This document shows, one piece after another, positions 1,967 to 6,138 of a DNA stretch of 55,390 nt; the first letter of the stretch is position 1; every line of letters starts with the position of its first letter. The position numbers and the translations under genes are program-made. The notes beneath the pieces are model-generated. The model did not search any database, was not told the origin of the DNA, and was given only the letters and a program-made list of their open reading frames with translations. Source of the DNA: a virus. Lineage: Duplodnaviria > Caudoviricetes. The DNA is taken from positions 1 to 55,390 of IMG/VR virus record IMGVR_UViG_3300044984_002141, one strand, 5' to 3'.

Positions 1967-2566
1967 ATGTCTAGGAACGAGTACTTAAAAAAGCCTGGAG
2001 AGCTGGTTGAATACACCACTGACATGGTACGTGAGTTACAGAAGTGTAGTGTAGACCCAGTTTATTTCATTGAAAATTACATAAAAATCACTCATCCGAC
2101 AAAAGGACTGGTGCCATTTATATTATACGATTTTCAACGTGTAATGGTAAAAACATTTCATGAAAATCGATTTTCAATAGCGTGTGCGAGCCGACAAGTA
2201 GGTAAATCACAAACCTCATGTGCATTTATCTTATGGTATGTGTCATTTCACTCACATAAAAACGTATTAATAGCATCAAATAAAGCTAGTGGTGCAAAAG
2301 AGATGTTAACTCGTATATCAGAGATGTACGAGAATCTACCAAAATTTTTAAAACCGGGTATTGATCCATCGAACTGGAACAAACTATCCATATCATTTGA
2401 CAATAACAGTAAAATTATATCAGAAGCAACTACATTAAATAGTGGTCGGGGTATGTCTATATCATTACTATTCTGCTTAGGTGGTGAAACTAATGTAACT
2501 GTACGTAATAAGCGTACTGGTGAGGTTAGTGTTGTTAGTTTAGAACAGCTGTATGGAGGATTATAG
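1967..2566 (+). CDS. terL: Terminase large subunit fragment 1 (ATPase N-part, 169 aa) fused to split-intein IntN-1
   Basis: gp17-like DPVYFIENY, Q-motif LYDFQ, Walker A SRQVGKS, GRGMSISLLF; then intein block A CLGGETNV. Confidence 0.95.
   Translation: MSRNEYLKKPGELVEYTTDMVRELQKCSVDPVYFIENYIKITHPTKGLVPFILYDFQRVMVKTFHENRFSIACASRQVGKSQTSCAFILWYVSFHSHKNVLIASNKASGAKEMLTRISEMYENLPKFLKPGIDPSNWNKLSISFDNNSKIISEATTLNSGRGMSISLLFCLGGETNVTVRNKRTGEVSVVSLEQLYGGL
2474..2563 (+). mobile_element. Split intein 1, N-fragment (30 aa)
   Basis: CLGGETNVTVRNKRTGEVSVVSLEQLYGGL then TAG; Cys1 block A and the xxxLY motif of short atypical IntN fragments. Confidence 0.9.
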
Positions 2567-2568
2567 TA

Positions 2569-3444
2569 ATGTTTGAATGTATAGACAACAAATATAAAGT
2601 GTGGTATTTTGCACTAATACAAAAACGGATATTATCTCCGTGCACTGATAGCCACACAGAATCGCACCATATACAACCCAGAGCGCTAGGTGGAACAAAC
2701 TTACCCAACAACTTAGTACAGCTAAGTGTACGAGAACATATTGTTTGTCATCAAATGTTAGTAAAATTTTTAAAGCACCCGTTAGCAAAACAAAAAATGC
2801 TACTAGCGTTGCATTTCTTATGTCATGGGAGGCACAAGGTTGATGAACGCAAAACTATAATGAATAAATTTTCAAGTAGATTGTTAGCAGAGCTACGTAA
2901 AAATTTACATGAGCCTAAATCTGTAGAGACTCGTGAGCGTATGTCCATTGCACGCACTGGTATCAAGCGAAAATATGAGCACTACATGAAGGTTAACACA
3001 GATCCTGAAAAGATTCGCAAAACTGCGGAGTTTCACAGAGGTAGAAAGCGTAGTGCTCAAACAAAATATAAACAAAGTGTACGTAAAAAAGAGTTCTTAT
3101 CGGTGAATAACCCGTTCAATAAAGGTAAGAAACAGTACTATGATCCAACTAATAGTTTGAACACTGGTGTATATTTTTCAGGTAGTGAGCCAGCCGGGTG
3201 GATATTAGGTAATCAAAAAGCACGAGGTACTAAAACTTGCTATAGTTTAGAAACAGGTGAAGTTAAACGATTTGCGGTGGATAGCATACCAGCTGGGTGG
3301 TTCATCGGGCACCCTAATAATAAGGGGTATGAGATGTATATTAATATACATTCAAATCAACATAAACGGATAAAACCCACTGCGATACCATTATGTGGTG
3401 AATGGGTTCACTGGACTAAATTTAACGAGGTGCGCCATGCGTAG
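2569..3444 (+). CDS. Free-standing HNH homing endonuclease with NUMOD3-like motifs
   Basis: N-terminal ESHHIQPRALGGTN..NNLVQLSVREHIVCH; KSVETRERMSIARTG and RSAQTKYKQS motifs; SD GGAGGA at 2555-2560. Confidence 0.9.
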   Translation: MFECIDNKYKVWYFALIQKRILSPCTDSHTESHHIQPRALGGTNLPNNLVQLSVREHIVCHQMLVKFLKHPLAKQKMLLALHFLCHGRHKVDERKTIMNKFSSRLLAELRKNLHEPKSVETRERMSIARTGIKRKYEHYMKVNTDPEKIRKTAEFHRGRKRSAQTKYKQSVRKKEFLSVNNPFNKGKKQYYDPTNSLNTGVYFSGSEPAGWILGNQKARGTKTCYSLETGEVKRFAVDSIPAGWFIGHPNNKGYEMYINIHSNQHKRIKPTAIPLCGEWVHWTKFNEVRHA

Positions 3445-3763
3445 TAATACAGAATATGAAATTTTATCACCAGATGGTCATTTTTATGATTTTAAAGGTG
3501 TAATTCAATCAACTAAAACCCTACATCAAATTAAGATACAAGATGGTGATGATATATGGGCGTCAGATAATCATATATTCTTTGTAAATGGTATTGCTAC
3601 TAAAGTGAGTAATTTGAGTGATTATGGATTCATTGATTCTATTGATGGTCCAATCGCGTATCAAAAAACATTCAATTATAACATCACTTATGCATATGAT
3701 GTAGTTGAATGTCAAGAAGAAGATCATTTATATACAATTAATAGTAGCATTATAACCCATAAC
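3437..3763 (+). mobile_element. Split intein 1, C-fragment (109 aa)
   Basis: EILSPDG, block B ASDNHIF, block F AYDVVE, block G IITHN followed by Cys+1. Confidence 0.9.
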
Positions 3764-4129: not shown

Positions 4130-5033
4130 TATTTCTAATCTATTAGCTCAAAAATATGTTATTTCTCCATTAGATGGCAACCAGTATTGTAGAGCAAACG
4201 GATACTTTAAGCGTCACTTACACGACAACGGATTTAATTCATACCATGAGTTTTTTAGATCTATGTATCCAACACTAATACAGCATTGTAAATTTTGTGG
4301 TGTTGAGTGTTCATTTAATAATACAACTATGCAATATAAAATTACATGTGGCGACAGAAAGTGTCAAGGTAAGTTAACATCAGAAATTCTTGCAAGTAGG
4401 GATGATAATTATTGGCCTACAGTGCTATCTCGCAGGTATGAAACGATTAGTAGTCAACCTATTGAATATAAACGTAAAATAATAGAAAAACGTGTGGCTG
4501 AGTGTATTGCGCGGGGTTCTTATCAAAAAGCAGTTGCGGTACGTGAGCAAACATGTTTATTGCGTTACGGTGATAGTAAGTATAATAATAGCACTCAAAT
4601 ATCTAAATCAAAATTAAATTGGACTCCAGAGCGTAAAGCACTATACCATGAACGGTTTTTACAAACCACAGGAGGTAAAAAGCTATACGAGTTTCACACC
4701 ACTGAAACCTGGTATAATAGGTCTATTCGATTACACGAGAGAGGATTAGCGGTTCATCCAGATGAGAGATCAGCCTTACGGTTATATCGGCTTGCAGTTC
4801 AAAGATTAACTGAACAAAATTATAAACAGCATAAGCATATTATTAATCCAAATAATTATACACGAGCAACTAAAAAAGATTGTGAATTAGCATATCACTT
4901 AGATCATATTATACCGATCGTATACGGGTTTGCGCACAATATACCGGTTGATACTATTGCATCGGTTGACAATCTACAGATGTTACACTATAAAGAAAAT
5001 ATTTCAAAAGGAGCTAAGTATGTCAGCATTTAG
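4113..5033 (+). CDS. Free-standing homing endonuclease with C-terminal HNH domain
   Basis: YHLDHIIPI...SVDNLQML..KENISKG at the C-terminus; Cys pairs CKFC and CGDRKC in the N-half; SD TAAGGA 4102-4107. Confidence 0.85.
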   Translation: MMNLSNISNLLAQKYVISPLDGNQYCRANGYFKRHLHDNGFNSYHEFFRSMYPTLIQHCKFCGVECSFNNTTMQYKITCGDRKCQGKLTSEILASRDDNYWPTVLSRRYETISSQPIEYKRKIIEKRVAECIARGSYQKAVAVREQTCLLRYGDSKYNNSTQISKSKLNWTPERKALYHERFLQTTGGKKLYEFHTTETWYNRSIRLHERGLAVHPDERSALRLYRLAVQRLTEQNYKQHKHIINPNNYTRATKKDCELAYHLDHIIPIVYGFAHNIPVDTIASVDNLQMLHYKENISKGAKYVSI

Positions 5034-5349
5034 AGCTAATAATAAAGGGTATCAAATTAAAACACCATATGGATATGAGCCTTTTGCTGGTATATCAATG
5101 AATGGTGTTAAACCAGTTATAAAATTATCGTTATCTAACGGTAAAACAATCACTGGTACCGAAAACCATATCTTATTCACCTCAGATAAATTAGAACGAT
5201 GTATAGGTAATATTAAAATTGATGATGTGCTTGATGGGATAGTACACACGACTGTTACCGGTGTTGTCGCTGATGGAAGTGCTGAAGTCTTTGATGTAAT
5301 TGAAGTACCATCTCATACATTTTATGCAAACAGTGTTGTTAGCCACAAC
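5020..5349 (+). mobile_element. Split intein 2, C-fragment (110 aa)
   Basis: QIKTPYGYEPFAGI, block B TGTENHIL, block F VFDVIEV, block G VVSHN followed by Cys+1. Confidence 0.92.
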
Positions 5350-6138
5350 TGTCATTTTATTAGTAATGACCCGTTATTGTTTAGTTCTATCGGGCTTAGT
5401 AATTATTTTGTTACAGAGATGCCTGCACCTGATGCTAGGGGGATTGTATTCTTTGAACCAATTGAATACGGTAAAACATATTTAATAGCTATGGATCCAG
5501 CAACAGGCACTGGAAGTGATTACACTGTTATAGTAATGTATAGTTTTCCAGATATGGTGCAAATTGCAGAATATCGAGCAAACACTGTTTCATCACCTGC
5601 GGTGTATCATGTACTCAAATATCTACTTAAACTACTTGAAAAATCTAGAGCTGCTAACGCTTATTGGAGTCTAGAAAATAATGGTGTCGGTGAAGGTATC
5701 ATTAGCATGTATGAATCTGATGAAAATCCTGCTGAATTTGGTGAACTTGTATCTGAAGCTGGTAGACGTAGAATAGGCTTTACAACTGGTAAAAATAAAG
5801 CTAAGCATTGTATGACTTTTAAGAATTTATTTGAAGCCGGTAAGATTATTGTGCGTTCACGTAATACTATCTCAGAAATGAAGAATTATATACGTAAAAA
5901 TGGATCATATGCAGCTAGAGTAGGTAGTACAGACGATACAATTTCAGCACACTTAATTTTAATTAGAATATTAGAAGAGATTACATCATACGAAGATCAA
6001 GCGTATGATATCATGTATAAAGATGAATTCTTAAACGAATTTGATAATAATGAAGAGCAATGGGAAGAACCAGCTCCTATCGTGACTAGTAATGATTTTA
6101 ACGAAGCGGATATGTTCAAGCACCTAGAAATGTGGTAA
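5020..6138 (+). CDS. terL: Terminase large subunit fragment 3: IntC-2 + nuclease domain (262 aa)
   Basis: Start refined to ATG 5020 (SD AAGGAG 5008-5013). RNase H-fold nuclease motifs AMDPATGTGSDYT, LENNGVG, TDDTISA. Confidence 0.93.
   Translation: MSAFRANNKGYQIKTPYGYEPFAGISMNGVKPVIKLSLSNGKTITGTENHILFTSDKLERCIGNIKIDDVLDGIVHTTVTGVVADGSAEVFDVIEVPSHTFYANSVVSHNCHFISNDPLLFSSIGLSNYFVTEMPAPDARGIVFFEPIEYGKTYLIAMDPATGTGSDYTVIVMYSFPDMVQIAEYRANTVSSPAVYHVLKYLLKLLEKSRAANAYWSLENNGVGEGIISMYESDENPAEFGELVSEAGRRRIGFTTGKNKAKHCMTFKNLFEAGKIIVRSRNTISEMKNYIRKNGSYAARVGSTDDTISAHLILIRILEEITSYEDQAYDIMYKDEFLNEFDNNEEQWEEPAPIVTSNDFNEADMFKHLEMW

Follow-up and report, generated by a model that had tools for sequence, protein, structure and literature searches.

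How could a working large terminase (TerL) be made from a terL gene that lies in three separate pieces? The question is raised by the stretch of DNA analysed here (the window), which is the whole of IMG/VR record IMGVR_UViG_3300044984_002141, 55,390 bases from an uncultured lake phage. Within it, terL (1967-6138, plus strand) consists of three open reading frames (ORFs) parted by two free-standing endonuclease genes. All five genes lie on the same strand in the order E1-IntN1 / HNH-a / IntC1-E2-IntN2 / HNH-b / IntC2-E3, where E1 to E3 are exteins, IntN and IntC are the N- and C-terminal parts of split inteins, and HNH-a and HNH-b are the endonuclease genes. Judging from its sequence, this is very probably a real, doubly fractured terL whose product is restored by two protein trans-splicing steps. 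An earlier sequence-only reading had proposed a three-ORF TerL with two split inteins and two endonuclease genes, and both the ORF list and Pfam agree with that proposal. The five genes are as follows, with lengths in amino acids (aa):

1967-2566, plus strand: ORF1, 199 aa, made up of E1 (169 aa) and IntN1 (30 aa)
2569-3444, plus strand: HNH-a, 291 aa, predicted free-standing homing endonuclease in the split site of intein 1, with its own GGAGGA ribosome-binding site
3395/3437-4129, plus strand: ORF3, made up of IntC1, E2 (91 aa) and IntN2 (30 aa)
4113-5033, plus strand: HNH-b, 306 aa, free-standing, in the split site of intein 2
4930/5020-6138, plus strand: ORF5, made up of IntC2 and E3 (262 aa)

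In all five ORFs a Shine-Dalgarno-like motif stands 5-9 bases upstream of an ATG, and neighbouring ORFs either abut or share 8-17 bases. ORF1 and ORF3 use the same reading frame, from which HNH-a, HNH-b and ORF5 each depart. With the frames differing, the layout is no simple read-through, and joining of the ORFs by read-through or frameshift was rejected, with three frames in use and a ribosome-binding site for every ORF. The layout first proposed held overall, with the exception of two start codons. The GTG at 3395 (ORF3) and the TTG at 4930 (ORF5) given by the ORF finder are less likely starts than the ATGs at 3437 and 5020, which follow Shine-Dalgarno-like GAGG/AAGGAG motifs. IntC1 is therefore 109 aa long and IntC2 110 aa. 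The layout recurs in a second assembly (L005, another IMG/VR contig), which over 12,000 bases shows 47 mismatches but not a single gap (99.6% identity). With the amended starts, the protein parts encoded by the three ORFs are:

1967..2473, plus strand: extein 1 (E1), 169 aa, TerL N-terminus with Walker A motif SRQVGKS, up to the Walker B strand (...SLLF)
2474..2566, plus strand: IntN1, 30 aa, Cys1 first (CLGGET...), plus stop codon
3437..3763, plus strand: IntC1, 109 aa, ending in ...THN and followed by Cys+1
3764..4036, plus strand: extein 2 (E2), 91 aa, starting with C-DE (Walker B Asp-Glu), containing an STPNG motif and ending in ...QQEYE
4037..4129, plus strand: IntN2, 30 aa, CLRGDT..., plus stop codon
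5020..5349, plus strand: IntC2, 110 aa, ending in ...SHN and followed by Cys+1
5350..6138, plus strand: extein 3 (E3), 262 aa plus stop codon, end of the ATPase domain and RNaseH-like nuclease domain

Removal of the intein parts in silico, by a scripted cut at the named motifs, gave a protein of 169+91+262 = 522 aa, the length that had been predicted. We aligned this protein to TerL of the jumbo Xanthomonas phages XacN1 (548 aa) and Xoo-sp13 (550 aa), the nearest cultured terminase relatives (43% and 40% identity, respectively, in the C-terminal part, the XacN1 figure being that of the E3-bearing part). The restored junctions that had been expected, SLLF|CDEFAFV and FQQEYE|CHFIS, proved gapless against both. 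At junction 1 SLLF|CDEFAFV faces SLIYCDELAFV, at junction 2 QQEYE|CHFIS faces QQEFECMFIS, and the +1 cysteine is native at both junctions in both phage proteins.

The exteins together carry the features of a gp17-type large terminase, namely Terminase_6N and Terminase_6C, with SRQxGK(S/T) and the Asp-Glu pair D255-E256 aligned in gp17 structures. The Terminase_6N profile is continuous over the first break, with positions 3-101 in ORF1 and 102-207 in ORF3 (101|102), whilst E3 matches Terminase_6C (E 4.3e-10). Alignment to T4 gp17, which had been suggested as a check, placed the three exteins in order. Residues 7-168 of E1 align to gp17 93-252 (3ezk, E 1e-26), residues 2-69 of E2 to 255-321, with the DE pair first (255-256), and E3 to 378-550 as well as to the RB49 nuclease domain (3c6a). 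Because E1 maps to gp17 252 and E2 begins at 255-256, site 1 is placed by alignment inside the Walker B strand, one residue upstream of the Asp-Glu pair corresponding to gp17 D255/E256, which we take to be the Walker B and catalytic carboxylates. Site 2 maps to the end of the ATPase domain, right before the nuclease domain, which in gp17 presumably starts near residue 360.

The segments flanking both breaks resemble atypical split inteins. The best sequence match of IntC1 in the PDB was 6dsl_B, the consensus engineered intein CatC (E 9.4e-5, improving to E 3.3e-6 when 12 extein residues were added). IntC2 likewise matched 6dsl_B best (E 4e-6), together with VidaL (6vgv), the gp41-1 intein and the DnaB mini-intein. 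Both IntC parts align to CatC nearly end to end, block B included, where SDNH of IntC1 and TENH of IntC2 align to SDNH of CatC. The residues of class 1 inteins, Cys1, block-B (T/S)xxH, a terminal HN and a +1 Cys, are present in both inteins. An AlphaFold2 model of ORF3 (26 homologues) had a predicted local distance difference test score (pLDDT) of 81-96 over residues 1-110, and the IntN2 tail also had high pLDDT, from which nothing follows about docking in cis. In a Foldseek search the IntC1 part of the model again found 6dsl_B first (E 7e-6, root-mean-square deviation 2.6 A, about 31% identity to CatC), and all 23 matches with E <= 0.001 were inteins. IntC1 is thus modelled with a HINT fold whose best structural match is the atypical Cat intein.

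Pfam Intein_splicing fell below its cut-off for ORF5 (21.2 against 35.8 bits, E 2.8e-4) and did not match ORF3. This lowers formal Pfam membership, not the fold assignment; the Pfam model is built on canonical inteins. The sizes, 30 aa for both IntN and 109 and 110 aa for IntC, fit the atypical split intein class (IntN ~25-37 aa, IntC ~104-122 aa), and we assign both inteins by sequence to the AceL-TerL / GOS-TerL / Cat type.

The two inteins differ considerably from each other, with 24% identity by BLAST and 10/29 (N parts) and 27/103 (C parts) identical positions in global alignments. When the inteins and endonucleases were compared with the entire window by tblastn, only the reciprocal IntC1/IntC2 matches (E about 0.001-0.002) stood out, the rest being at chance level, so the window holds no further copies. 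Net charges of -4 for IntN2, +4 for the first 40 residues of IntC2 and -10 for IntC1 fit a cognate pairing of IntN2 with IntC2, though they are no more than suggestive. A complex prediction with IntC1, IntC2 plus 10 extein residues, and IntN2 preceded by 10 extein residues scored 0.36, and a control in which IntC2 was replaced scored higher, at 0.80, so that this prediction speaks neither for nor against binding or orthogonality. No Rfam family was found at E <= 1 between 1500 and 6500, hence no match to a group I or II intron model.

Each intein with the endonuclease gene in its split site forms one mobile element:

2474..3763, plus strand: mobile element 1, 1,290 bases, IntN1 + HNH-a + IntC1
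4037..5349, plus strand: mobile element 2, 1,313 bases, IntN2 + HNH-b + IntC2

The window is present in lake/freshwater metagenome runs (24 rows from 21 studies, 3 possibly the source of the record), and contigs of four runs, X4, X6, X22 and the RNA library X24, were compared with it; for X6, X22 and X24, conclusions concern the stretches that contigs cover. Alleles empty at site 1 were found in X4 and X6, where contigs connect 2472 with 3764 across a single letter, so that the 1,290 bases of element 1 are missing on balance. The joint had a depth of 13.7 and a side of 30 letters in X4, and a depth of 8.87 and a side of 114 letters in X6. In X4 an occupied contig (2438-3793, depth 12.3) was found alongside the empty form. 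X22 held a relative, ~6% diverged, with the same site-1 loss at a depth of 115.5 against 9.2 for the occupied form (side 27 letters). At site 2, one X6 contig (depth 8.41) joins 4036 to 5350 and skips 1,313 bases. A 290-aa database protein (P0003) runs E1-E2-IntN2 straight through SLLFCDEFAFV, with E2 and IntN2 100% identical to the window, and reads as a natural intein-1-free form. In X24, contigs lay on both inserts with zero joints; DNA carry-over into this library is possible.

Because natural alleles without exactly each element exist, both inserts are precise, mobile, presence/absence elements, on weak support at site 2. The phage population is polymorphic at site 1 and perhaps, on one weak joint, at site 2. 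The occupied form is spanned at its junctions by contigs of independent runs, 2438-3793 and 3764-6700 in X4 and 4402-5351 in X6. What a split-intein origin leads one to expect of the sequence was borne out throughout, in exact junctions, splicing residues, the modelled HINT fold of IntC1, the lack of an Rfam intron and the occurrence of element-free alleles.

The endonuclease genes are not related to one another (blastp E 0.72). By its match to phrog_655 (homing endonuclease, E 4.9e-29), HNH-a falls clearly into a homing-endonuclease family and is a predicted HNH nuclease; its Pfam HNH/HNH_5 matches are weak (E 0.014-0.017) and under curated cut-offs (HNH 15.7 against 21.4 bits). HNH-b matches phrog_5104 (E 6e-12) and, weakly, phrog_1035 (endonuclease VII, E 0.0013) and phrog_17283 (HNH endonuclease, E 0.0067), with no Pfam match. 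A homologue 46% identical to HNH-b stands at the same place in three relatives (L006-L008). By eye, the site-2 endonucleases of the window and of four other loci (L013 6790-7761, L016 6718-7775, L043 6374-7444, L025 6338-7858) seem to share a similar N-terminal stretch. They differ in the C-terminal domain, which is HNH-like in the window but DUF7487 in L013, in L043 and, in part, in L025. The L016 gene is broken in two frames near its end, by decay or sequencing error.

These observations suggest how the protein would be assembled. terL would have been invaded at two conserved sites by composite selfish elements, each of them an atypical split intein whose split site houses a free-standing gene for a homing endonuclease. 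From the five closely spaced genes, all equipped with a ribosome-binding site, three TerL pieces and two endonucleases would be made. The IntN1 tail (30 aa) of piece 1 would dock onto the IntC1 head (109 aa) of piece 2, and the IntN2 tail (30 aa) of piece 2 onto the IntC2 head (110 aa) of piece 3. In each completed HINT fold, class-1 splicing would begin with an acyl shift at Cys1 and transfer to Cys+1, after which the terminal Asn would cyclise and an S-to-N shift would follow. The end product would be one 522-aa TerL with native peptide bonds F169-C170 and E260-C261. Inteins 1 and 2 would not cross-react. Assembly requires them to be orthogonal, since a pairing of IntN1 with IntC2 would leave out the middle piece, and one of IntN2 with IntC1 would turn that piece into a circle. 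Both endonucleases would cut intein-free terL of co-infecting phages, and repair would then copy the whole element. Such homing would account for the presence/absence polymorphism within the same lakes. We infer ligation of the three proteins, orthogonality of the inteins and homing into empty alleles.

Next, the spread of this organisation among relatives was studied. A protein search with ORF3 (230 aa) gave 241 matches, and among the best 120 of these were 55 stand-alone IntC-extein-IntN middle pieces of 225-275 aa, all 55 of the same build. Block-B (T/S)xxH, the +1 Cys, the Walker B DE and Cys1 of IntN2 are conserved in every one of them. The site-1 intein lies three residues further upstream in 6 of the 55, and some middle pieces come from contigs of 100-356 kb. 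At the level of 50%-identity clusters there were 2,549 matches at E <= 0.001; an automatic test of the best 150 representatives found 21 middle pieces, 25 IntC1-E2-E3 proteins and 9 IntC1-E2 proteins with a long Cys-started in-frame tail, the remainder being other combinations. The predicted three-piece form of terL is widespread in metagenomes.

We also compared 86 IMG/VR loci (6 plus the best 80 of 597), a choice that favours intein-bearing loci. Site 1 was interrupted in 10 of these, site 2 in 11 and both in 3, namely the second assembly L005 (same phage as the window), L013 and L016. A suggested search for the same five-gene layout in other genomes thus found it at two distant loci, since L013 and L016 have the full layout with other endonucleases and an E1 only 36-37% identical to that of the window. 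Between L013 and L016 the proportion of synonymous differences (pS) was 0.64-0.89, which is saturated, and nonsynonymous divergence (dN) was 0.12-0.48 across all the parts, among them the intein fragments and the endonucleases. With synonymous sites saturated the ratio to synonymous divergence (dS) is not quantifiable, and the only usable statement is that dN is far below dS. The site-2 context of L013 presumably resembles the native C-extein of AceL-TerL and Cat.

Other relatives cover the states empty, in-frame mini-intein, split without endonuclease and split with endonuclease. Site 2 is empty in L009, L010 and many others, and filled by a homologous element in L006-L008, whose IntN2 homologue is 40% identical. 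L034 and L036 carry an in-frame mini-intein of 150 aa exactly at site 1; IntN1 aligns to residues 1-26 of this mini-intein and IntC1 to its residues 45-149. Site 1 of L041 is split but lacks an endonuclease, and splits without endonuclease were also found in L015 and L033. The site-2 endonuclease of L012 is reduced to a 73-aa remnant. An in-frame intein at the Walker A site is combined with a split one in L011, L014 and L015. The endonuclease families in the split sites vary between HNH, DUF7487, DUF559 and GIY-YIG with NUMOD3. One relative of 250 kb, 70% complete and fractured at site 1, contains a single terL locus.

Several explanations other than trans-splicing were weighed. The doubly fractured allele could be a crippled or dead terL, its pieces ligated too poorly or not at all, that persists through intein-free genomes in mixed infection or a second terL in the unseen 82%. 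Intein-free alleles do coexist in the same runs and the record is 18% complete, but every splicing residue and TerL motif is intact, and the three-piece form recurs both in the protein searches (55 among the 120 of 241 relatives, 21 among the best 150 representatives) and in lineages with 36-37% E1 identity. In addition, dN of the intein parts is far below the saturated dS, the occupied and empty forms had similar depths in X4 (12.3 and 13.7), and no second terL accompanies the fractured one in the 250-kb relative (70% complete). We therefore consider a dead gene unlikely. A non-covalent complex of the three pieces, in which the intein halves serve as dimerisation modules and no splicing takes place, would draw on the tight binding of split-intein halves to each other. 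That residues needed only for the chemistry (Cys1, block-B His, terminal Asn/Gln and +1 Cys) are kept in 55/55 middle pieces argues against it, as does site 1 itself, which breaks the Walker B strand one residue ahead of the catalytic Asp-Glu, so that an unspliced HINT domain of ~140 aa would occupy the ATPase active site. This makes such a complex very unlikely.

Phage introns often carry HNH genes, and the inserts might instead be removed from RNA as group I or II introns with endonuclease ORFs, as in the terL of Jug phages. The Rfam result speaks against this, and where the inserts meet the exteins they consist of intein halves, which have a HINT fold and the residues for splicing. The joined form moreover exists in DNA, and the contigs of the RNA library cover the inserts without a joint, a weak point given possible DNA carry-over. 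RNA-level removal is in our view extremely unlikely. An artefact, either a contiguous intein-containing gene broken by errors or a contig that is a chimera of strains, deserves mention because the record was assembled from metagenome data on a population that varies at just these sites. Its chance is minute, since the second assembly matches throughout 12 kb without an indel, contigs of the independent runs X4 and X6 span each junction of the occupied form, every ORF has its own ribosome-binding site and start, and the separate-ORF layout is kept in diverged loci.

A real, doubly fractured terL restored by trans-splicing is thus the reading we prefer, and the following points weigh against it. 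We infer splicing from conserved residues and relatives. The record holds a single terL locus, and an intact second terL may lie outside the sequenced 18%. Intein-free alleles circulate in the same samples, so mixed infection might in principle provide complementation for the doubly fractured allele. Cross-talk within the atypical TerL intein family is possible by analogy because the IntN fragments of GOS-TerL and AceL-TerL are interchangeable, according to the review PMC11766414. The site-2 empty allele is one joint with a side of 26 letters, under the caution line of 30, and is weak. The predicted nuclease activity of HNH-b is less certain than that of HNH-a because its family assignments are weak.

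Split inteins, fractured genes and atypical TerL split inteins are already known. Fractured genes were defined by Dassa et al. 2009 (PMC2677866) as conserved enzyme genes with a split intein and a free-standing endonuclease gene between the halves, an arrangement that the window terL shows twice. One of their loci is a gp17-like terminase from Lake Gatun with an intein split at an unusual point and a C-part of 122 residues. Like the window, the loci described there have N-extein-IntN, endonuclease gene and IntC-C-extein on the same strand and a phage origin in metagenomes. They are, however, fractured in two by one split intein, whereas the window terL has two elements and three pieces. Their spacers are 27-51 non-coding bases whilst the window genes abut or overlap, and their endonucleases are GIY-YIG or Vsr-like, those of the window putatively HNH-type.

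The closest inteins are AceL-TerL, GOS-TerL and Cat, homologous atypical TerL split inteins that trans-splice in vitro (review PMC11766414). As in the window their host is TerL, with IntN of 25-37 aa (30 in the window) and IntC of 104-115 aa (109-110 in the window), following PMC11766414 and PMC13014065. The Cys1/Cys+1 chemistry of the window inteins matches AceL-TerL and Cat. In those sources, which name neither the TerL site of origin nor a gene shared by two of them, the inteins are studied singly and for protein engineering, whereas the window has two in one gene. In-frame inteins occur in actinobacteriophage TerL (bioRxiv 10.1101/2025.01.02.630785), in L034/L036 and apparently in Salicola phage SCTP-2. 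As in the window, they lie in TerL, a known hot spot for inteins at nucleotide-binding motifs. These splice in cis within one polypeptide, whilst both window inteins are split, each with a separate endonuclease gene. In Jug phages terL is split by group I introns; like the window, these are jumbo phages with terL in two or three ORFs and homing endonucleases nearby. Their fragmentation is put down to RNA splicing, in contrast to the window, where the search against intron models was negative and intein halves stand on either side of the breaks. MIJ3 PolB has a split intein with HNH. Tandem trans-splicing with two orthogonal split inteins has been engineered (e.g. PMC7210297), with an IntC-insert-IntN middle fragment ligated between two flanks as proposed here. 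That system is a laboratory design with unrelated pairs, whereas the window would be a natural case with two diverged members of one atypical family.

A literature search, which did not extend to the primary papers on atypical TerL inteins or the supplements of Dassa et al. 2009, found single fractured terminases only and no terL or other gene needing two split inteins. We could not find a description of one essential gene that needs two trans-splicing reactions with an IntC-extein-IntN middle piece. The sequence-only reading had been cautious about novelty; a double-fracture terL was indeed absent from the literature searched, while the layout itself is no rarity in metagenomes. We lean, by a small measure, towards a broader view in which obligate tandem trans-splicing by two orthogonal inteins is a recurrent, undescribed TerL state throughout a wide clade of uncultured phages, most of them jumbo. 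On the same view there are at least three TerL intein sites (Walker A, Walker B and the ATPase/nuclease junction), and all stages of the element life cycle are segregating, even in one lake population. If this is true, the pairs that evolved together in nature could serve as they are, as orthogonal inteins with a short IntN, for ligating a protein from three segments. If the pieces ligate, nature has already solved the orthogonality of two short-IntN inteins in the same cytoplasm and the same protein, which could be used directly in three-segment protein semisynthesis and labelling. The polymorphism at site 1, and perhaps site 2, together with the states in relatives offers a natural system for studying homing, endonuclease turnover and intein decay. 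For annotation, TerL, a standard phage marker, may show up as three short ORFs under family thresholds.

The genomic setting of terL consists of genes for structure and packaging. CheckV completeness is only 18%, so the window is a fragment, and the phage is probably a jumbo phage. A DNA similarity search of 1967-6138 against a phage collection gave zero matches. The neighbouring features are:

1027-1461: head-closure protein, near terL
1505..1924, plus strand: candidate small terminase subunit, directly upstream of terL, with a weak match to phrog_445 (terminase small subunit, E 0.0038)
downstream of terL: large virion proteins

The annotated terS of Xoo-sp13 occupies the same position as the candidate at 1505..1924.

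Further variation was seen among the relatives. The last residue of the site-1 intein in the 55 middle pieces is Asn in 31 and Gln in 24 (mostly SHQ|C), and the penultimate residue is Lys instead of His in 18. From the sequences, a whole subgroup would thus have an unusual C-terminal chemistry. L033 (4039-7522) has another three-piece terL, with a split intein at the Walker A site (PRQVGK|C) accompanied by a DUF559 endonuclease, a site-2 split intein without endonuclease and an empty site 1. In G001, the record of L026 and a 250-kb relative, Terminase_6N matches the same profile region twice within 208176-211968 (profile 12-151 at 208176-208589 and 12-102 at 209084-209344). Duplication of the N-terminal piece may account for this, or one more insertion.

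Amongst cultured phages, Salicola phage SCTP-2 (440 kb; L092 3480-5564) has a 694-aa TerL that matches IntC1 and E2 in two pieces, suggesting an in-frame intein at site 1. In Campylobacter Fletchervirus phages (CPX, CP81, CP8, NCTC12673, CP30A, PC14 and others) terL is apparently in two pieces. The N piece ends in ...LIFIDE followed by a 31-aa IntN, and the C piece, an IntC of ~99 aa with the rest of TerL, lies >100 kb away on the other strand with no endonuclease between. The C piece is annotated merely as terminase or DNA packaging protein, and the word intein is absent from Timms 2010 (PMC2853527). The Fletchervirus terL loci are:

L091 3998-4711 and L094 1241-1468: phage PV052264
L096 2498-3826: phage CPX

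In all, 60 phage records cover >= 80% of the middle ORF of the window. Elsewhere in the window, a 532-aa ORF of the structural module (37382-38980) matches phrog_24148 (HNH endonuclease, E 3.8e-9) in its C-terminal part, as well as virion structural families.

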